A stretch of DNA of 64,000 nt, from assembly GCA_001244265.2 (NCBI GenBank), contig CDLV01000005.1:1612001-1676000 (forward strand), written 5' to 3'. The number at the start of each line of letters is the position of its first letter. The stretch's first letter is position 1. Below the pieces are notes generated by a model. It ran no database searches, was not told the origin of the DNA, and saw only the letters and a program-made list of their open reading frames with translations. This stretch comes from Microbotryum violaceum (lineage: Eukaryota). The position numbers were made by a program, and so were the translations under genes. Below are positions 2,926 to 56,470 of the stretch, one piece after another.

Positions 2926-5900
2926 GGTTATAAGCCACAACAAGCTACCAGCGCGGTCACCTCCGTGCCCGCCCTCGTCGTCGTCGTTTTTTTTTTTTTT
3001 TTCGCGCTTCGCACGACTCAGCCTCGCCCTGCACCCTGCACGCCTGGCATGTCCGACGACGCCATGTCCTTAACGCCTGGCATGTCCGACGACGCCAAGT
3101 TCTTAACGCTCGCGGTCCCCCCACCGCGCCCTCCCACACAGGTCGCAGCCTTCGCTGTTTCCGACCTTCTGCGCGACACCAACGGCTATCAAGACTGGGT
3201 CCTGACGCTATGCTCCCGTCTGCCCTCCGACGTTATCGACTACCTTCAGTCTGGCGTCCCTTCGTCGTCCTGGCCGCCATCTTACGTTTCATTATGGGAT
3301 CACTACGCCCGCGCCTCGATCTGCGCCGCCGTCGACCCTCGGATGGTTCTTCCCGGCCTCTCGCAATACTTCGGCGACCCTCGCAGCGGTCACAAGATTT
3401 GGGTAGCTCTGCGCATGCGATATGGCGCTGTTTCGGCGGTCGATCTTCTCCCTGTCATCTCTCGACTCTTCAGTCCCGACCCTATGCCCGACACCGTCGA
3501 CGAGTTCCTTCAGTTTCGCGACCGATTCGAGAACGACTCCCGCCTCCTCGACGACTCAAAGGTGACGACGGATTCCCTACTAGCGTCACACTTGCTCGCC
3601 CGGATGCCCTCCTCCCTCTCCGCCTGGCGCACTACGTTTGTCAATTCTCAGGGCACATCCCGTACACTGCCCCCTTCCGCCGAGATCCTCGACCGTATCT
3701 ACCGCGAGATCAAGGCTCGTCCGGTCGACTCCCCCGTTGCCGCCACTACCACCTCTCAGCAACGCGTTCCCCATAGCCCTTGCCCCAACCCCTCTTGCCG
3801 AAAGATGCACTGGCTTCGGGACTGTCCCGACACCGCCTGGGCCGCCGCCTTCCGCGCCCGCAAGGCTGCCGCCGGAGCGACTTTGCGAAATCACAAGAAG
3901 GGTTCCCGCGCCGTCGCCTCTCCTGCCGTCACCTCCCCTGCCGTCGACGAGAAGTCAGAACCCGCCACCTTCACAGCGTGCCTCCTCGCCACTCCGTCTT
4001 CCTTTCCTAAGTCGGCTTGGCTCCTCGACTCCGGCGCTAATCGCCACATGGCCAACGACAGCCAACTCTTCTCCACCCTCCGGCCGTTCGCTGGCCCGCA
4101 CGTTGCTGGAGTTGCCGGTTCTCTTCCGTCCACCGGTTGTGGCTCCGTCTGCCTCTCGACGTCAGCTGGCCCCGTTGTAGCGACCGACGTCCTCTTGGTA
4201 CCTTCGCTCCCGTGCAACTTATTATCGGTCCGCCGCCTGGATTGACTCGGTTTCACCACCTCCTTCGGTTCCGGCCGCGCCACGATCCGCAACTCCTCAG
4301 GCACCGTCGTCGCCACGGCACAAGCAATTGCAAATGACCTATACGCGTTAACCGTCGCACCCTCACCCTGTATGCCCAATGCCCTCCTAGCCACCCCCAC
4401 AGAGTTTCCTTACTGACTATGCACTGTCGCTTCGCGCATTTACCCGTCGCGCAACTCAAGAGCGTTGTGCAGAAAGGTTTGGTCACTGGGGTGGATTGGG
4501 TATATTCAGAGGAAGAGGTTAGGTCTTTCAATTGCAATGCTTGTCTCGCTTCCAAAGCGCATGCCCTCCCTTTTGCTCGTTCCAAGTCCATTGCGTCCGG
4601 TCGCCTGGACCTCGTCCACGTCGACGTCGCCCAAATGCCTCGGGCCAGCTTCGGCGGTCATCGCTACATGCTTGTGATTGTCGACGACTACACCCGCAAA
4701 CATTGGTGCATCCTCCTCACTCACAAAAGTGACGTCTTTCACCGTCTCCGCGCCTGGATTCTTGAGGTAGAGAACGTCACGGGTGACCGGGTAAAGACTA
4801 TTCGCTCCGACAATGGTGGCGAGTTCACTCTTCGGAACTTTGTCGATTTCTGTGTGGCCAAGGGTATACGTCGCGAGCTCACTATTCCGTACACCCCTCA
4901 ACAAAACGGACGTGTTGAACGCACCAACCGCACCATCAAAGAGGGTATCCTTGCTTTACTCTACTCGGCAGGTGCTGACACGCGCCTCTGGGCTGAGGCC
5001 GCCACGTACTTCGTACACTGCAAGAACTTGATGCCGCACGCAGGCATTCGCGGTGATATCCCTGACACTCGTTGGTATGGCATTGCACCGGATGTATCCT
5101 CATTACGTGCCTTCGGTTGTCGTGCGTGGCACTACCTTCCCTCGGTTAAGCGCACCGCCCTCGATCCCAAGGCTGTGCCGCTCATGTTCGTAGGGCTCGA
5201 CGACCACGCGAAGGCGTATCGCCTATTCGACCCGGCTACACGCAAAATCCTCCTCAGTCGCAACGTCGTCTTTCGTGAATCCGAGTTCCCTGCCTTGCAG
5301 AGCGTGGTCGACACCCACACTGGCACCACTCCACTTCCTGTGGCCGCCGACATTCACCCCGACCAGGTAGACCACTCTGAGCCGTCGCTCGTTGCTTCCC
5401 CTCACTCTCTGGCGCCTCGTGCCGAGCCCCAGGACCCGCGCCCGCTGCCTTTGACCAAGGCCCGCGCCGTCCACTCCCGCCCGCGTCCTCCCTGACCAGG
5501 ACTCACGCGCGCGCCCTGCCTCTGACCAAGGCTCTCCTGCCTCCGACCAAGGCTCTCTTCCTGCCTCTGACCAAGGCTCTCTTCCTGCCTCTGACCAAGG
5601 CTCCCTCATCAACCGTACGGGTGGCCTCCCTGACCAGGACTCCCCCGACACCCACGCCTCTGACCAGGGCAGCTCCGACTCGGCAATCTCCACGCCTTGT
5701 CCATCCCTCGACCGGTGGTGCCACGTCCGTTGCCCGCGCCGTCCTTGCCCGCTCGATCCGAGTCCCCCGACCCTATCGACCTCTTGCCACGCTCGGGTGA
5801 TATCGCTTCCGTCTGTCTCGCACCTGAATTCCCCGACGACCTGGACGACGCCCTCCACTCGCCTCCACCTGTCGCCCACCTTGCCTCCGGTGTCGTCGCC

Positions 5901-6413: not shown

Positions 6414-6444
<31 letters not shown>

Positions 6445-8150: not shown

Positions 8151-16661
<8,511 letters not shown>

Positions 16662-16976
16662 TGTGACAAGTCCACTCTCAGCTCGGCAGAGGCGCCTCGG
16701 TCGGTGCGCGCACCCGCTAGCCCGCCCCCCTGCGCTGGGGACTTAGACGCGCGCGACTGACTCAGCGCGCCAGCGCCGGGTGGATCCGTGCGCGTGCCCA
16801 TAGGCCGCCCCCTTTGCGGTGGGGACTTAGGCGCGCGCGACTGCCTAGCGCGCTAGCAACTTCACCCGCGACTGGGCCTATCCCAGCGCGGGTCCCCTTT
16901 CTATTTCTTAGCTTCCCTCTCACCACTTCTGTTCAACAATCGACCTCTCCTGACAGTAGTGGTGATTGTCTCATAG

Positions 16977-17045
16977 GTATGCTGAAATATACCACTTCTG
17001 TTCAACAATCGACCTCTCCTGACAGTAGTGGTGATCGTCTCATAG
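16977..17045 (+). other. Predicted 69-nt spliceosomal intron at the U5/PBS junction of the B2 5' LTR
   Basis: TAG|GTATGC donor at 16977, CCTGAC branch motif 17018-17023, TAG acceptor ending on the first G of the PBS (17045). Same 69-nt arrangement on - at 13704-13772 in B1. Confidence 0.75.
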
Positions 17046-21271: not shown

Positions 21272-25659
<4,388 letters not shown>

Positions 25660-26636
25660 GATTGCTGTCAAGCACGTCCTACGCTACCTCCGAGCCACTT
25701 ATCGCGACGAGCTTCTCTACACTCGTGGTAAGACGGACATCAAGGGCGTGGTAGGTTACTCCGATGCCAACTGGGTGCCTGCGTCAACACATCGGTCTCC
25801 ACCATGGGTTTTGTCTTCTACATTGCCGGCTCCGCTGTGTCCTGGTCCTCCAAGCGTCAATCGCGGGTCGCCGACTCTACCACCGACGCGGAATACCTCG
25901 CTCTCTCGCATGCTGGCAAGGAAGGGATCTACCTCAGTCAGCTGCTTGAGGAGCTCCATGTCCAGTCCGGTATCCCCACTCACATCTACACTGACAACGA
26001 AGCTGCTGCCGCCGTCGCACGAGACCCTGTCTGCGCATCCGGGACTCGACATATCCGTCTGCGTGAGCACTTCGTTCGGGACATGGTGAATCGGGGTGAG
26101 ATTTCTCTTTTGCACGTGGGGACAAGCAACATGGTGGCCGACATTTTTACCAAGGCACTTGGCCCGAAGATTTTTTCCATGCATTGCTATGCTCTCGGCT
26201 TGCGCACTCGACATCCACGGCTTGGGTCTGCCTCGCATTCGCGTGGGGGGGGGTGTGACAAGTCTACTCTCAGCTCGGCAGAGGCGCCTCGGTCGGTGCG
26301 CGCACCCGCTAGCCCGCCCCCTGCGCTGGGGACTTAGACGCGCGCGACTGACTCAGCGCGCCAGCGCCGGGTGGATCCGTGCGCGTGCCCACTAGGCCGC
26401 CCCCTTGCGGTGGGGACTTAGGCGCGCGCGACTGCCTTAGCGCGCTAGCAACTTCACCCGCGACTGGGCCTATCCCAGCGCGGGTCCCCTTTCTATTTCT
26501 TAGCTTCCCTCTCACCACTTCTGTTCAACAATCGACCTCTCCTGACAGTAGTGGTGATTGTCTCATAGGTATGCTGAAATAGACCACTTCTGTTCAACAA
26601 TCGACCTCTCCTGACAGTAGTGGTGATTGTCTCATA

Positions 26637-28602: not shown

Positions 28603-33917
<5,315 letters not shown>

Positions 33918-35974
33918 CTTGGCTCCTCGACTCCGGCGCTAATCGCCACATGGCCAACGACAGCCAGCTCTTCTCCACCCTCCGGCCGTTCGCCGGCCCG
34001 CACGTTGCTGGAGTTGCCGGTTCTCTTCCGTCCACCGGTTGTGGCTCCGTCTGCCTCTCGACGTCAGCTGGCCCCGTTGTAGCGACCGACGTCCTCTTGG
34101 TACCTTCGCTCCCGTGCAACTTATTATCGGTCCGCCGTCTGGATCGACTCGGTTTCACCACCTCCTTCGGTTCCGGCCGCGCCACGATCCGCAACTCCTC
34201 AGGCACCGTCGTCGCCACGGCACAAGCAATCGCAAATGACCTATACGCGTTAACCGTCGCACCCTCACCCTGTATGCCAAATGCCCTCCTAGCCACCCCT
34301 CACAGAGTTTCCTTACTGACTATGCACCGTCGCTTTGCGCATTTACCCGTCGCGCAACTCAAGAGCGTCGTGCAGAAAGGTTTGGTCACTGGGGTGGATT
34401 GGGTATATTCAGAGGAAGAGGTTAGGTCTTTCAATTGCAATGCTTGTCTCGCTTCCAAAGCGCATGCCCTCCCTTTTGCTCGTTCCAAGTCCATTGCATC
34501 CGGTCGCCTGGACCTCGTCCACGTCGACGTCGCCCAAATGCCTCGGGCCAGCTTCGGCGGTCATCGCTACATGCTTGTGATTGTCGACGACTACACCCGC
34601 AAACATTGGTGCATCCTCCTCACTCACAAAAGTGACGTCTTTCACCGTCTCCGCGCCTGGATTCTTGAGGTAGAGAACGTCACGGGTGACCGGGTAAAGA
34701 CTATTCGCTCCGACAATGGTGGCGAGTTCACTCTTCGGAACTTTGTCGATTTCTGTGTGGCCAAGGGTATACGTCGCGAGCTCACTATTCCGTACACCCC
34801 TCAACAAAACGGACGTGTTGAACGCACCAACCGCACCATCAAAGAGGGTATCCTTGCTTTACTCTACTCGGCAGGTGCTGACACGCGCCTCTGGGCTGAG
34901 GCCGCCACGTACTTCGTACACTGCAAGAACTTGATGCCGCACGCAGGCATTCGCGGTGATATCCCTGACACTCGTTGGTATGGCATTGCACCGGATGTAT
35001 CCTCATTACGTGCCTTCGGTTGTCGTGCGTGGCACTACCTTCCCTCGGTTAAGCGCACCGCCCTCGATCCAAGGCTGTGCCGCTCATGTTCGTAGGGCTC
35101 GACGACCACGCGAAGGCGTATCGCCTATTCGACCCGGCTACACGCAAAATCCTCCTCAGTCGCAACGTCGTCTTTCGTGAATCCGAGTTCCCTGCCTTGC
35201 AGAGCGTGGTCGACACCCACACTGGCACCACTCCACTTCCTGTGGCCGCCGACATTCACCCCGACCAGGTAGACCACTCTGAGCCGTCGCTCATTGCTTC
35301 CCCTCACTCTCTTGCGCCTCGTGCCGAGCCCCCAGGACCCGCGCCCGCTGCCTTTGACCAAGGCCCGCGCCGTCCACTCCCCGCCCGCGTCCTCCCTGAC
35401 CAGGACTCACGCGCGCGCCCTGCCTCTGACCAAGGCTCTCCTGCCTCCGACCAAGGCTCTCTTCCTGCCTCTGACCAAGGCTCCCTCATCAACCGTACGG
35501 GTGGCCTCCCTGACCAGGACTCCCCCGACACCCACGCCTCTGACCAGGGCAGCTCCGACTCGGCAATCTCCACACCTTGTCCATCCCTCGACCGGTGGTG
35601 CCACGTCCGTTGCCCGCGCCGTCCTCGCCCGCTCGATCCGAGTCCCCCGACCCTATCGACCTCTTGCCACGCTCGGGCGATATCGCTTCCGTCTGTCTCG
35701 CACCTGAATTCCCCGACGACCTGGACGACGCCCTCCACTCGCCTCCACCTGTCGCCCACCTTGCCTCCGGTGTCGTCGCCTTGCTCAACACCGCGCCTAC
35801 GGACTCGACGGAACTGATCGCGCCCGCCCGGGATCCCCCTCACTGGCGTGCTGCCATGGCAACCCCTCAAGCTGACGAGTGGCGTCTAGCTGCCCAGGCC
35901 GAATTCGACTCACTTTCTCGCGATTTCTCCGCTTTCACACCAATTGATGAGTCCCTCGTGCCTGCAGATGCTAG

Positions 35975-36480
35975 TGTGATGTTGTCACACCTGCTCAAGC
36001 GGTGGTAAGTCTCTGATCGAAGGACCGAGGGAGACCAGACCAAGAAGTTGCTTTTTACACACCTGCTCAAGCGGTGGTAAGTCTCTGATCAAAGGACCGA
36101 GGGAGACCAGACCAAGAAGTTGCTTTTTACACACCTGCTCAAGCACTACAGTAAGTTACCACATCTAGAGGGGTGAAAGATGATAGGAAGAGTAGTGCTC
36201 ACCTGCTCAAGCGGTGGTAAGTCTCTGATCGAAGGACCGAGGGAGACCAGACCAAGAAGTTGCTTGAGCAGCAGCGAAACCAGAGTGGGGCCATTTGGCT
36301 GGGCCCAAGTCAGCCCAGCCAAAGTCAGGCGCACGGACCTGGCCCAGGTGCAGAGACCAGGCCCAGAGTGGAGAGCTAAGGTGGTGAAAAGTAGGCCAAA
36401 AGTGATCAAAACGAAGAGAGGAGGATGTTGAGGTAGGTACAAGATACAAGAAGGACATGAAGGAGATATTTGATCTCACA
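35975..36480 (-). repeat. Solo LTR related to family A (TG...CA), with three copies of the U5 unit and the GTGAGC..CAG intron-like segment; no TSD
   Basis: On -: tgtgagatc...acatcaca; unit ..gatcagagacttaccaccgcttgagcag x3; flanks gctag and aggcg belong to different elements (A3 and C1). Confidence 0.85.
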
Positions 36481-36653
36481 AGGCGCACAGAGCGAGGCTG
36501 GGACTTAGGCGCGCGGAGCGAGCCTGGGCCATTGGCTCACCCCCGAGGCTCGCTGGCTGTGGACTTGGCGCGCGTGGCTCTTTTGTTGTTAGCTTCCCAT
36601 TCATCACTCTTGGCTATAACTACACCGCTGACGTAGTAGAGTTGATCGAATAG

Positions 36654-36722
36654 GTATGTTGAAATGGATTCATCACTCTTGGCTATAACTACACCGCTGA
36701 CGTAGTAGAGTTGATCGAATAG
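36654..36722 (+). other. Predicted 69-nt spliceosomal intron at the U5/PBS junction of the C1 5' LTR
   Basis: TAG|GTATGT donor, GCTGAC branch motif 36696-36701, TAG acceptor completed by PBS G 36722; identical 55-bp units 36599-36653 and 36668-36722. Confidence 0.8.
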
Positions 36723-36820
36723 GTTATAAGCCCACGAGCTACCAGCCCCGCCGCTTGCGTTTTTTTTTTTCACTCGAGCCCAGCCACTCGAGCCGCACAC
36801 GTCCATTGCACCATCACATC

Positions 36821-39800
36821 ATGGACAGCTCTCCCGCCTCGCCTTTGGCCCCCAGGGATCCCAGCTCCCCTGAATCTTCGATCGGCGAACAAATCGCCAC
36901 TCTACAGGCCCAGCTTGCCGCTCTGCAGGCCTCGCAACCGCCGCCGCCGCCACCCCGGCCGTCACCGCCGTGCCGGGGAACGCCGCCACCGCATCCAAGG
37001 TCGTGTTTCCCAAGCACGCTCGTCTGGACGGCCCCAAGTCGTTCACCAACTGGTTGCGTCAACTCCGTCTTGCGCTTCCCAACCAGGTTCGCGGTTACGT
37101 TCTCGACGGTGTCATGCCCCCGACCTGGACCGCCGACCAGCTTGCCGCCCGTGACGACGCCGCCCGGGAAATCATCGTTGGCTCGATCGACTCCGCCGAC
37201 GTATCGGCCACCCTCGACGCCATCCCCAGCGACGACCTGTCGGCACCGCGCATCTTTGCCGCTCTCAAGGCTCGTTTTGCACCGGACGACGCTACATGCA
37301 CTCTCGAGTTGTTCGCTCGCCTTTGGGACTTCAGGACGATGCCTGCCTCCGTCGAGGCCTACGACACTTGGCTACGCGAGTACATGTCGATTGCTCAGGA
37401 AATACGCGACGCCAAAACATCGCTCAACGACGTGCTCGCCACCCACGTGCTCGCCATGGTCCCGTCTTGCCTCGACAGCTTCCGACTCACGTTCACGGAC
37501 GAGCAGCGAAACCGACGCGACCTTCCCGAACTCACGACACTTACGGACCGCATTCGCATCCAGCTTCGTTCGGCAGGACTCTCGACCTTGCATTCGGCCA
37601 TGCTTGCCACCAGCTCCCCCTGCCCCGCCTGCCGCGCTCCCGGTCACCGCCTGCGCAACTGCACTTCACGTGCGAAGCACCCGCCCACCGGCCCCTGCCG
37701 CCGATGCCAAAAGAAAGGTCACTGGGCACTTGACTGCAAGAACCGGGGTGAACAGGCACGTCGCAGCGACGACACCCAGGACGACACGTCTTCCTCCGCG
37801 GCTTTGCAACCGAACGTCGGCTATTTCGCCTCCTGCCTGTTCGCTCGTCGCCAACTCCCAACTGACGCCTTTGTAGTCGATTCGGGCGCCACGACACACA
37901 TGGTCGCCGACCGATCTCTGTTCACGACTTATCGTCAGACGGCACACACCAAGATCGGCGGCATCGCGGGTGGCATCACGGCTATCGGCGTGGGGGACGT
38001 GGCATTCGTCGCCAAGACTGGACACCCGATCACACTCCGTGGCGTTCTCCACACGCCTGGCCTCCACGTCAACCTCCTCTCTGTCGCTCGCCTCTGCAAC
38101 ACCGACCGGGTTCGCCTCGCCTTCACCAGCGACGGCATCGACATCACCAAGGACGGCCAGGCCATCGCTCACGGTACCAGGGTCAACGATGGTCTTTACC
38201 TTTTGGACGCGGATCACACCAAGTGTCAGCATCTTGCCTTTCTCTCACGCTCTGAGTCCCCCGTGCCCCTGCTTACCCTACACCGCTGCCTCGGCCATCT
38301 TGCCCCATCCTCTATACAGAAGATGATTGCTGCAGGTTTGCTGGACGGGTTTGGGGCCGGGTACAGTGACAAAGACGTGGAAGAGTTTGTTTGCAATGCT
38401 TGCCTTGGTTCCAAAGGCCACCGTCTCCCTTTTCCTGACTCTGAGTCGCATTCCCCCGAGAGACTTGGCCTCGTGCACAGCGATGTCCTGTCGTTTCCCA
38501 CTCCGTCCTTGACCGGGAAGCGCTACCTTGTCACATTCCTCGACGACCACTCTCGCAAACTCTGGGCATATGCGATCGATCACAAGAGCGACGTCTTCCC
38601 GATCTTCCAGACTTGGCTCGCCGAAGTGGAGTTAGCGACGAACGCGCGTTTGAGAATCCTTCGAACCGACAATGGCGGGGAGTATCGATCAAACGCATTT
38701 ACGGAGTTCTGCAAGTCCAAGGGCATACGTCGCCAATATTCTATCCCTTACACGCCTCAGCAAAACGGTCGCGCTGAACGTGTCAACCTCTCCATCGTCG
38801 AGGGCGTCCTCGCTCTCCTTGCGGACGCCCGTCTGCCGGCCACCTTTTGGGATGAAGCGGCTGCGTATTTCGTTTATTGCAAAAACAGATGCTCACACTC
38901 AGCTTTGGCCAAACAGACTCCAGAATTCGTTTGGAACGGCCAACGCACCACCGCCACCGCCCTCCACCCGTTCGGCTGCACAGCCTGGCTCACGGTCGCC
39001 CCGGACCATCGCAGCAAGCTCGACCCCAAGGCCGCGCGCGTGATCTTCACAGGTTACGACCTCGCCTCCAAAGCTTTCCGTTTCTTTGACCATTCCATCA
39101 ATAAGATTGTGCTTGGTCGCAATGCCACCTTCCTCGACAACGACTTCCCCGGCCTGCCAGTCACCACGCCCGTCGATGCGGACGACACCGACCGTCAGTT
39201 CGTCGTTCCCGCCGACACGCCCGCCCCTGCCGTCAAGACGAGGACCCCACTAGTAAGGTCGGCGCACATGGACGTCTCATCCTCCCTTGATGATTCTGCC
39301 ATGAGCGCCGTTGACGTGGCCCAGGGTACACTGGCGGATCCTTACTTAACTCTACAGACACTCGCTCTTCGTCGTCTCCATCGCTTTCCCCATTTTCGTC
39401 GCCGGCCACGTCCTCGGCCAGGGATCCGTCCCTCAACGACTCGGATGACCCGCTTGATCTCCTCAGCTCCAACACCGCGGTTCGCCTCAACCTGATGGAC
39501 GTGCATCGATCCGACGACGACACACCAGAGACGCAGGCACCAGCCGTTGACCCCGTTGGGCAGCCCTCCGATGACGACTCCCCCAATGAGATTGATTTCC
39601 TCTCTCGTCACCACCGCGCTTTCATCGCCACAGACGACGACGACCCCACCCTCGACGCCATCGAGCCCGTCAAATCGATCACTAGCGACCCCCAAACCTG
39701 GCGCGAAGCAATGTCCAGCGACGAGCACAACATCTGGGCTGAGGCTGCCGCCACCGAGTTCACCGCCATGCGCGACGACTTCAAGGTGTTCACCATCGAG

Positions 39801-41420
39801 CCTCGCTCATCCGTACCGCCGGGCGCCACCATCGTCACCTCCAAATTCGTCTGGAAGACCAAGCGCAACGCCAGCGGTGAAGTCACGGGGCGGAAGGCAC
39901 GTCTTGTAGCGCAGGGTAACCGACAGCGCAATGGCATCGACTTCTCAGAAACCTTCGCACCCGTCGCCCGCTTCTCCTCCATTCGCTGCCTCTTGGCTCT
40001 TGCCGCTGCCAACGGCTACCACGTTCATCAGGCCGACATCGACAAGGCTTACCTACACGGCGAGCTCGATCATGATATCTGGATGACGACACCACGAGGT
40101 TTCGACTTCCCAAGCGATAAGGTTCTCCGGCTGCGACGTTCAATCTACGGTCTCAAGCAGGCCGGTCGCATCTGGAATCGTCACATTGACACATCACTCA
40201 GGAATCTCGGGTACAAGGCAACAGGCACTGATCACTGCATTTACTCTCGCATTGACGATCAGCAGCGGCCTCACTATATCGCCTTGTATGTCGACGACCT
40301 CCTCATTGTCAGTCCCCACCTCGACGAGATCGAACGTGTCATCTGCGGCCTTGAACAGCGATACGGCGTTAAACGACTCGGCCCGGCGGAGTACATCCTC
40401 GGAATCCAAATCCGCCGCCTGGACGACGGCTCCATTGCTCTATCCCAGGAGCGCTACATCATGGACGTGCTAGCCCGTTTCCACTTTGACACCACGACAC
40501 GCGGCACTACGGTGCCGATGACGCCCGGCCTCTCGCTCACGGCAATTCCGGGTCAGGGAACGGAGCGCATTCGTTCGTGGTACCTACAGGCCATCGGCTC
40601 CCTCCTTTACATCTCCCTCGGCACTCGACCCGACATTGCCTTCGCCGTCTCGTACCTGTCCCGGTTCGCCAACAACCCCGGCCGCCGCCATTGGATTGCC
40701 GTCAAACACGTCCTTCGCTACCTTTGCGCCACGTACCGCGATGAGCTTCTCTATGCCCGCGGCCCAGCAAAAGTCACGGGTGTGGTTGGTTATTCTGATG
40801 CGAACTGGGGCGCCTGCGTCGACACATCCATCTCAACGATGGGCTACGTATTTTACTTGGCAGGCGCCGCCGTCTCTTGGTCGTCGAAGCGTCAGACTCG
40901 GGTAGCAGATTCCACCACTGATGCCGAGTACCTGGCCTTGTTGCACGCGGGTAAGGAAGCGATCTACCTTACCCAACTCCTCTCCGAGCTCCACGTTTCA
41001 CCAATCGCTGCAGCTCACATCTTCACCGACAACAAGGCCGCGGCCGCCGTCGCTCACGACCCCGTTTGCACCTCCGGCACCCGGCACATTCGCCTCCGCG
41101 AGCATTTTGTCCGTGACATGGTCAATCGAGGTGATATCTCTCTCTCACACGTTGGCACAGCAGACATGGTTGCGGACGTATTCACCAAAGCGCTAGGCCC
41201 CAAGATTTTTGGTACACATTGCTTTGCTCTAGGCCTCCGGACGCGACATCCACGGCTCAAGTCTACCTCGCGTTCGCGTGGGGGGGGGTGTGAGGAATCC
41301 ACTCTCTGCTCGGCTCAGGACTTAGGCGCGCGGAGCGAACCGGGCGCGGACTTAGGCGCGCGGAGCGAGCCGGGCGCCCCGGCCCAGGACTTAGGCGCAC
41401 AGAGCGAGGCTGGGACTTAG
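36821..41420 (+). CDS. Near-intact copia Gag-PR-IN-RT-RNaseH polyprotein of C1 (a few single-base frameshifts, possibly sequencing errors)
   Basis: ATG 36821 (MDSSPAS..); ORFs 36970-39495 (two CCHC-type knuckles, [14 protein letters not shown]) and 39495-41420 ([24 protein letters not shown]). Confidence 0.85.
39253..39357 (+). other. Conserved, self-complementary intron-like block in the IN-RT linker
   Basis: GTAAGG...CTTACTTAAC..ACAG; nearly identical at 11188-11291(-), 19449-19554(+), 23585-23690(-), 31000-31105(-), 47513-47618(-) although B and C flanks differ. Confidence 0.6.
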
Positions 41421-41587
41421 GCGCGCGGAGCGAGCCTGGGCCATTGGCTCACCCCTGAGGCTCGCTGGCTGTGGACTTGGCGCGCGTGGCTCTTTTGTTG
41501 TTAGCTTCCTATTCATCACTCTTGGCTATAACTACACCGCTGACGTAGTAGAGTTGATCGAATAGGTATGTTGAAATGGATTCATCA

Positions 41588-50252
<8,665 letters not shown>

Positions 50253-51578
50253 ACCAGGTTCTCCGGCTGTGGCACTTGATCTACGGTCTTAAGCAGGCCG
50301 GTCGCATCTGGAATTGCCACATTGACACATTGCTCAGGAGTCTTGGGTACACGGCAACGGGCACTGATCACTGCATTTACTCTCGCATTGATGATCAGAA
50401 GCAGCCCCATTATATTGCATTATATGTTGACGATCTCCTCGTTGTCAGCCCCGCCCTCAACGAGATTGACTGTGTCATCTCCGGCCTCAAACAGTGATAC
50501 GGCGTCAAACGACTCGGCCCTGCAGAATACATCCTCGGCATCCAGATTCGACGCCTGGAAGACGGCTCCATTGCTTTATCCCAGGAGCGCTACATCATGG
50601 ACGTGCTCGCCCACTTTCACTTCGACACCACAACGCGCGGCGCTACGGTGCCAATGACGCCCGGCCTCTCGCTCACGGCAGTACCGGGTCAGGGAACGGA
50701 ACGCATTTGGTCGTGGTACCTGCAAGCCATCGGCTCCCTCCTATACATTTCACTCAGCACTCACCCGACATTGCCTTTGCCGTCTTGTACCTGTCCCGGT
50801 TCGCCAACAACCCCGGCCGCTGCCATTGGGTCGCCGTCAAACACGTCCTTCGCTACCTTCGCGCTACGTACCGTGATGAGCTACTCTACGCCTGCGGTCC
50901 AGCCAAAATTACAGGGGTGGTTGGCTATTCCGATGCAAACTGGGGTGCCTGCGTTGACACGTCAATCTCCACAATGGGCTTCGTCTTTTACTTGGCCGGC
51001 TCCGCCGTCTCTTGGTCATCGAAGCGTCAGACTCGGGTAGCAGATTCCACCACTGATGCCAAATACCTCGCCTTGTCGCATGCTGGTAAAGAAGCGATTT
51101 ACCTTACACAACTCCTCTCCGAGCTCCACGTTTGCCCGGTCAATGCGGCTCACATTTTCACGGACAATGAGGCCGCGGCCGCCATCGCTCACGACCCCGT
51201 TCACACCTCTGGCACCCGACACATACGCCTCCGCAAGCACTTTGTTCGCGACATGGTCCACCAAGGCGATATCTCCCTCTTACACGTCGGCACAGCGAAC
51301 ATGGTTGCGGACATATTCACCAAGGCGCTAGGTCCCAAGATTTTTGGTGTACATTGCTATGCTCTAGGCCTCCGGACGCGTCACCCACGGCTCAAGTCTA
51401 CCTCGCGTTCGCGTGGGGGGGGGGGGGGGTGTGAGGAATCCACTCTCCGCACGGCTCAGGACTTAGGCGCGCGGATCAAGCCTGGGAAACTTGGGGTGCG
51501 TGGCTCTCACACTGTTAGCTTCCTATTCATCACTCTTGGCTAGAACTACATCGCTGACGTAGTAGAGTTGATCGAATA
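50253..51578 (+). mobile_element. Decayed family C RT-RNaseH fragment (C3) with a short 3' LTR 51430-51578 (single U5 unit)
   Basis: [21 protein letters not shown]; stop at 50495-50497; G-run PPT; LTR tgtgaggaatcc...gatcgaata. Confidence 0.88.

Positions 51579-56470
<4,892 letters not shown>

Follow-up and report, generated by a model that had tools for sequence, protein, structure and literature searches.

A conserved two-unit LTR end in Microbotryum-type copia retrotransposons and its possible reading as a self-renewing intron

Retrotransposons in the window

Retrotransposons are densely nested in the window, by which we mean the whole 64-kb stretch of DNA analysed here. One of them, element C, is of the Ty1/copia type (Pseudoviridae) and comes from a Microbotryum-type fungus. 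Its features, all on the plus strand, are as follows.

36481-36721 (+), C 5′ LTR, without the first 104 nt that are present in the 3′ LTR
36599-36652 (+), unit 1 of the 5′ LTR, 54 nt; together with G 36653 it is the 55-nt unit ending in TAG of the initial annotation
36653-36667 (+), linker of the 5′ LTR, 15 nt, with the donor-like hexamer GTATGT at 36654-36659
36668-36721 (+), unit 2 of the 5′ LTR, 54 nt, equal to unit 1 at 54/54 positions and forming the final bases of the LTR
36654-36722 (+), putative 69-nt GT-AG intron, composed of the linker minus its first G, unit 2 and the first base of the PBS
36722-36739 (+), PBS of the tRNA anticodon-loop type, starting with GGTTAT and one base off the PBS of C′, an old copy of the C family
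36821-41288 (+), internal region with gag, zinc knuckle, protease-like barrel, integrase and RVT_2 reverse transcriptase
41280-41288 (+), polypurine tract, a G-run
41289-41633 (+), C 3′ LTR, 345 nt, with the base A directly 3′ of it
41511-41564, 41565-41579 and 41580-41633 (+), unit 1, linker and unit 2 of the 3′ LTR, the units being identical at 54/54 positions

The Pfam domains follow the order zf-CCHC, Pol_BBD, gag_pre-integrs, rve, SH3_retrovirus and RVT_2, i.e. gag, protease, integrase and reverse transcriptase. The Gag of the neighbouring family B, used as a query, retrieved 44 proteins; 43 of them were named, and all of these come from four Microbotryum species. The LTRs are in direct orientation with a 5-bp target-site duplication on both sides (CCAAG in family B, GGGGG in family A), and a G-run lies ahead of every 3′ LTR start. 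They start with TGTGA and end in ...ATA, deviating from the TG...CA termini at the U5-side end only. Five of the seven matches to the PBS motif were found directly 3′ of a 5′ LTR, and the A family has PBS variants. The primer tRNA assigned to this PBS is our assumption, and the tRNA scan and the Rfam scan of the window resulted in 0 matches each. PBSs of the tRNA anticodon-loop type have been described in fungal elements (PMC10886601).

The window copy of C is damaged, with a truncated 5′ LTR and breaks in the gag-pol frame near 36937 and 39319. Contigs from other sequencing runs diverge from this copy at 36480/36481 and carry insertions of 10 nt and 1 nt near the two frame breaks, which would restore the frame. 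In element B, the differences seen between the two LTRs (28603-28984 and 33535-33917) are all length changes of short base runs. These look like long-read assembly errors, and such errors may in part be behind the broken frames of A and B.

Several other repeats were noticed in the window. A 72-bp tandem array of 3.9 copies (35986-36265) lies just upstream of C, and part of its unit occurs also near 8600-8630 beside element A. A repeat family of ~1.3 kb is present in four copies (959-2256, 4134-5430, 15106-16402 and 34036-35332). At 52559-56408 (minus strand), element D sits in an apparent Ty3/gypsy pol fragment, recognised by an RNase H-like motif in a translation read by eye. Two other copia families have the same PBS type and a single, unrelated LTR end with no linker (41585-45719, minus strand, PBS at 45704-45717; and 6431-6444); one of these LTR ends is the canonical ...ACA and the other reads ...GATA.

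Anatomy of the LTR end

The preserved 241 nt of the C 5′ LTR are 99% identical to positions 41393-41633 in the 3′ LTR. The initial annotation had described the C LTR as ending in a unit, a linker with GTATGT and a second, identical unit directly before the PBS, with 69 nt in the linker and second copy, and this anatomy proved exact when the coordinates were rechecked. A pattern of 53 nt made from the unit matched six times in the window and 0 times in 100 shuffles, and the linker pattern matched 11 times, against a shuffle mean of 0.07.

The true end of the LTR is ...ATA, because the target-site duplication CCAAG of family B directly follows these bases, and the GGGGG of family A is placed in the same way. 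As the duplications abut ...ATA, the G that completes TAG is the first base of the PBS, which bears out the initial assignment of the acceptor G to the PBS. The layout of the LTR is U3, unit, linker and unit, without a separate U5, and it abuts the PBS. The accompanying claim that the 3′ LTR is devoid of the acceptor G was right for C, where AG is absent at the end of unit 2 and the next base is A, but it does not hold as a rule, since a G follows two of the five two-unit 3′ or solo ends by chance.

The U3 of the C 3′ LTR (41311-41441) and the region 48300-48500 contain a GC-rich motif of 26-30 nt, starting GGACTTAGGCGCG, repeated in tandem in variable number. Contigs from other runs include LTR variants with fewer copies of this motif or with a replaced segment.

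Census of LTR ends

The survey covered one 64-kb window and 14 LTR ends of this clade. Beside the two ends of C listed above, the following elements and ends were identified.

8793-14086 (-), element A, target-site duplication GGGGG, with two-unit ends at 13827-13705 (5′) and 8915-8793 (3′)
28603-33917 (-), element B, complete, target-site duplication CCAAG, with two-unit ends at 33657-33535 (5′) and 28725-28603 (3′)
16922-17044 (+), A2, two-unit end of a 5′ LTR, with 1 mismatch between the units
25277-25399 (-), A3, two-unit end of a 5′ LTR
26514-26636 (+), F, two-unit end of the 3′ LTR of a fragment
48133-48255 (-), C′, two-unit end of the 5′ LTR of the old C-family copy, with 2 mismatches between the units
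50130-50252 (+), G, two-unit end of an A-like 3′ LTR fragment, with 1 mismatch between the units
21272-21325 (-), single-unit end of family A, the 3′ LTR at A3
51525-51578 (+), E, single-unit end of a C-like 3′ LTR with a short U3
52250-52303 (-), D, single-unit end of a 5′ LTR with a B-like unit and the PBS directly after it

Eleven of the 14 ends have exactly the same build, with a unit of 54 nt, a linker of 15 nt and a period of 69 nt, and they fall into three diverged families: five in family A (A 5′, A 3′, A2, A3 and F) and one in the A-like G, two in B and three in C (C 5′, C 3′ and C′). A single unit with no linker was seen in three of the 14 ends and three units in none (0/14). The two-unit build of the LTR is confirmed as real and unusual, and it occurs more widely than the initial annotation had it.

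Element A3 has a two-unit 5′ LTR (25277-25659) and a single-unit 3′ LTR (21272-21583). Its flanking sequences, CAATC and GATAC, are not the same, and the copy either arose by recombination between two elements or underwent a rearrangement once it had inserted.

We also searched for this build in other collections. Among metagenome contigs selected by Gag alignment there were 61 pattern matches, of which tblastn confirmed 0. The linker-plus-PBS pattern gave two matches in metagenome contigs, both of them AT-rich chance matches with no repeated unit, and two in viral contigs, one of which equals L002 in length and match position while the other is the same sequence.

Apparent homogenisation of the two units

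Within a given end, unit 1 and unit 2 are identical at 54/54 positions in eight of the 11 two-unit ends. The remaining three (A2, C′ and G) are older or fragmentary copies with 1-2 differing sites, all of them C/T or G/A. The positions involved (16967, 17036, 48228, 48221, 50175 and 50244) are all at CG sites. RIP-like hypermutation has been reported for Microbotryum transposons (PMC4469406), and the unit differences, being all C/T or G/A at CG sites, fit such a process. Variants of the C/T or G/A kind that are present in both units within a family could also stem from parallel RIP (repeat-induced point mutation)-type hypermutation. The variants at position 21 (A3 and G), which are present in both units, were set aside as evidence for this reason, as they are CpG transitions.

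Between families the picture is different. The units of A and B agree at 45/54 positions, and those of A and C or B and C at ~61% with indels. The U3 regions are 84% identical between A and B and ~60% identical between A and C or B and C, and the internal regions share only ~70-77% DNA identity across families. No part of the LTR is kept as well as the linker, with 15/15 identical positions between A and B and 13/15 between A and C or B and C; at background identity, the probability of at least 13/15 is ~0.03. Had the two units diverged independently from a time before A and B separated, the probability of 0 differences in 54 positions at the A-B divergence would be 5e-5. The identity of the units extends to within 3-4 nt of the PBS, and position 51/54 is family-specific and the same in both units.

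The common 15-nt linker all but rules out separate recent duplications, so the duplication should be older than the families. As the units are alike within families and diverged between them, one unit would have been repeatedly re-copied from the other, in the manner of an R region. We consider it well supported by these comparisons that the units are homogenised during replication, up to the final bases before the PBS. Uniformity of the kind that strand transfer imposes on an R region in each cycle is what the units appear to display, and they are 61-83% alike between families. The initial proposal that unit 2 is rebuilt from unit 1 in each cycle probably holds, with strong indirect support from the three families that keep the build and have units identical within and diverged between them. 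Moreover, direct repeats of such size are reported to be unstable in reverse transcription (PMC3187697), so their long persistence needs either renewal or selection.

Measured from a conserved AGCTTCC motif, the repeat begins 4 nt farther upstream in C than it does in families A and B, and in each family its 5′ edge is an A with a pyrimidine before it in the copy next to U3. The position of the edge thus differs by family, which fits an edge set by the 5′ end of the RNA of each family.

As to the origin of the linker, copying from elsewhere in the element was considered and rejected, as all 11 pattern matches are LTR ends. A derivation from the PBS or the primer tRNA has a weak hint in its favour, in that only the first three bases and ATG match the PBS.

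Splice-like signals at the unit edges

The edges of the units resemble splice sites. A GTATGY donor is present in all 11 linkers (GTATGC in eight, GTATGT in three), and the PBS base completes AG in 6/6 two-unit 5′ LTRs. The fungal branch motif is CTRAY. CTGAC was found in 25/25 units, 22-23 nt before the unit end, and in all 11 two-unit ends it is located 22-23 nt before the acceptor; in element C it occupies 36697-36701, with the candidate branch A 22 nt ahead of the final G. In family C, further AGs are placed at +5, +8 and +10 after the branch A, ahead of the proposed acceptor at +22 with which they could compete, and a first-AG rule would favour one of these over it. Families A and B are cleaner in this regard, with AGs only at +3 and +6 and then at 23. 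Given the GT, the other donor positions would fit by chance with a probability of ~0.06, and CTRAY would be found in a 30-nt span with a probability of ~0.11. Among the six joints listed for contigs from four runs of unrecorded kind (36290-41285), none skips the 69 nt (0/6), and these contigs are uninformative on splicing and expression. A structured RNA element at the site was considered and rejected, because the fold is no more stable than that of shuffles (z +1.28).

Part of the match to splice sites comes at no cost. GGT follows both units, so AG|GT is partly automatic once the LTR end and the start of the PBS have been duplicated. Tandem duplications are also common in LTRs, and the whole structure could therefore be thought of as a functionless tandem duplication, recent and independent in each family, with splice-like motifs due to chance. 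The families, however, have in common the linker (15/15 and 13/15), the unit of 54 nt and the period of 69 nt, while their units are only 61-83% alike; the linker pattern occurs only at LTR ends, which leaves no internal template for repeated acquisition; and the single-unit LTRs are without linker. We regard such a functionless duplication as most improbable, and on these comparisons it appears already close to refuted.

The signals could also belong to an intron of the conventional kind, which would be spliced only in translated RNA, for the removal of upstream ATGs or for the benefit of an intron as such, while unspliced RNA is packaged as in retroviruses and the units stay alike via occasional copying of spliced RNA or template switches. 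The splice signals match this explanation, and so do the upstream start codons: in A, A2, A3, B and C, the proposed intron takes in every ATG of the leader counted from unit 1. The upstream-ATG argument is weak alone, the probability of no ATG being 0.16-0.38 per leader. The PBS adds to this picture, as the ATG present in the PBS of C′ (48132-48119) was lost by three different changes in A (13704-13693), in B and C (33534-33523 and 36722-36733) and in D (52249-52238), which suggests that an upstream start codon is selected against even though a mismatch to the primer results. The copia-type element BARE has been described as keeping the RNA that it translates apart from the RNA that it replicates (PMC3735527), and introns raise mRNA levels in a basidiomycete (PMC3744415). 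An unspliced template, on the other hand, would have the units inherited separately, and their identity in eight of the 11 ends, in families that differ at at least 9 unit sites, would need frequent extra events. We consider this explanation improbable.

A proposed replication cycle

The reading that we prefer, tentatively, is that an intron lies wholly in the LTR end, that the spliced RNA is reverse-transcribed, and that the intron is rebuilt in both daughter LTRs in every cycle; we hold this to be quite possible, if somewhat short of probable. Transcription would start at the first A of unit 1 (A 36599 in C), as judged from the 5′ edge of the repeat, and unit 1 with G 36653 would represent both the R region and the first exon. 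An ordinary spliceosomal intron of 69 nt, which begins with the GT of the linker and closes with the AG to which the first PBS base contributes the G, would be excised, after which unit 1 would abut the PBS. At the other end, the RNA would extend into unit 2 of the 3′ LTR, where there is no built-in acceptor. The minus-strand strong-stop cDNA would then be a copy of unit 1 and could anneal to the terminal unit 2. Its extension through the linker, unit 1 and U3 would give new LTRs that regain the order unit, linker, unit, with unit 2 overwritten by unit 1. Landing on unit 1 instead would lead to progeny with single-unit LTRs. Inferred in this scheme are where the RNA starts and is polyadenylated, that it is spliced and serves as template in that form, and that the cDNA favours the distal unit.

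To see which templates renew the pair, we let the RNA start in either unit and end after either unit, and took each case through the standard reverse transcription scheme (PMC3187697). With unspliced RNA, the units are inherited separately in any in-register case and would drift apart, and out-of-register transfers yield one or three units, never a renewed pair. For renewal, the donor cDNA must carry only one unit beside the primer, and at the 3′ end of the RNA it must land on the distal unit. There are two ways to bring a lone unit up to the PBS: either the 69 nt are spliced out, or the reverse transcriptase switches template from unit 2 to unit 1 while it makes the strong-stop cDNA.

The second way would do without splicing. 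The units would be a tandem repeat within R, the reverse transcriptase would jump from unit 2 to unit 1, the short cDNA would land on the distal unit, and the linker would be kept for other reasons; unequal exchange of DNA may contribute as well, and the linker may be kept as a 3′-end formation signal or a mini upstream ORF. Such roles could account for the conservation of the linker more generally: in A and B it can be read as an ORF of three codons, and TATGT with the A-rich stretch after it could presumably act as a 3′-end signal. In retroviral vectors direct repeats are deleted often, in 41% per cycle for a 110-bp repeat, and LTR repeats of 50-75 bp vary in copy number (PMC3187697). Single-unit ends, three of 14 and spread across families, agree with this behaviour. 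A homology-guided jump, however, retains the part of unit 2 already copied, so the bases adjacent to the PBS should escape conversion, yet they are family-specific and identical in both units. Template switching also predicts three-unit products from out-of-register transfer, and 0/14 were seen. Moreover, it gives no account of GT, CTGAC and AG exactly at the edges in all three families. Template switching with no splicing is rather unlikely in our view, and of the alternatives it is the one that we take most seriously.

A spliced template, with unit 1 abutting the PBS, would convert all of unit 2 and so account for the identity up to the PBS-adjacent bases, and a donor cDNA with one unit makes the absence of three-unit ends (0/14) expected. 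The position of the splice-like signals, exactly at the unit edges in all families, also speaks for splicing, and so, more weakly, do the upstream ATGs confined to the proposed intron and the loss of the ATG from the PBS. Splicing as the cause of unit renewal is the best explanation that the sequences offer, albeit unproven. It has its own demands. The cDNA has to prefer the terminal unit, possibly a partial one, over the complete internal unit 1, and the poly(A) site has to fall in the final 54 nt of the LTR or farther downstream. If the linker carries a 3′-end signal, the cap-proximal donor may silence its 5′ copy. Taken as a whole, the interpretation as a self-renewing intron appears partly supported.

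Implications

If true, this arrangement would be a natural solution to an old conflict, in that a retroelement is spliced like a host gene and the intron is passed on nevertheless. Packaging of unspliced RNA is enough for retroviruses and some retrotransposons to keep their introns, and the premise of the initial annotation that retroelements normally lose introns is too strong in this light. To our knowledge, such packaging is the only answer to the conflict described so far. An element with a renewed intron would gain the benefits of splicing in an intron-dependent host without losing the intron. It would also represent a new variant of reverse transcription, with an LTR that has two copies of R and no U5, and a test case for introns that aid transposon expression or escape from surveillance in intron-rich basidiomycetes. 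That introns aid expression in basidiomycetes, as the initial annotation had put forward, finds support in Cryptococcus, where mRNA accumulation is reported to depend on introns (PMC3744415) and RNAi to be fed by poorly spliced transposon RNA (PMC5851062). Even without splicing, a 54-nt direct repeat held at two identical copies across diverged families would be an unusual feature of strand transfer.

Comparison with known systems

Spliceosomal introns are known from the internal region of Ogre elements of legumes and of Penelope-like elements, where they persist via copying of unspliced RNA. We know of no proposal of a rebuilding step for either of them. In some complex retroviruses (deltaretroviruses and foamy viruses) a splice donor is located within R, in the LTR-derived leader upstream of the PBS. 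The acceptor is a long way downstream, so that splicing takes the PBS out of the RNA and with it the capacity for replication, and it is the packaging of unspliced RNA that preserves the intron. The introns of Penelope are mentioned also in PMC4209133. In open-access papers and preprints we found no description of an intron that occurs naturally inside an LTR and is restored by strand transfer.

The deletion of direct repeats and changes in the copy number of LTR repeats (PMC3187697) are a second point of comparison, and the single-unit ends look like products of such events. The known cases are unstable enhancer repeats in U3, whereas here two units and a conserved linker are kept over three diverged families, and ends with three units are absent.

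The closest natural parallel is the R region of retroviruses and LTR retrotransposons, a sequence at both RNA ends that guides the first, strong-stop transfer and is made uniform by it (PMC3187697), much as we propose for the units. The differences from a classical R region are that the repeat is present twice per LTR with a conserved 15-nt linker between the copies, that no U5 precedes the PBS, and that the proximal unit would be the donor and the distal unit the acceptor.

Finally, the design that comes closest is that of the split-intron retroviral vectors of Ismail et al. (2000), which likewise reconstitute an intron involving LTR sequence by LTR copying (PMC3182074). These vectors are engineered, with the donor between U3 and R of the 3′ LTR and the acceptor downstream of the packaging signal, and their aim is that the packaging signal is spliced out in target cells (PMC3182074). 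The intron proposed here would instead be a natural one, contained wholly in the LTR end and one base of the PBS, and would be renewed in every cycle.
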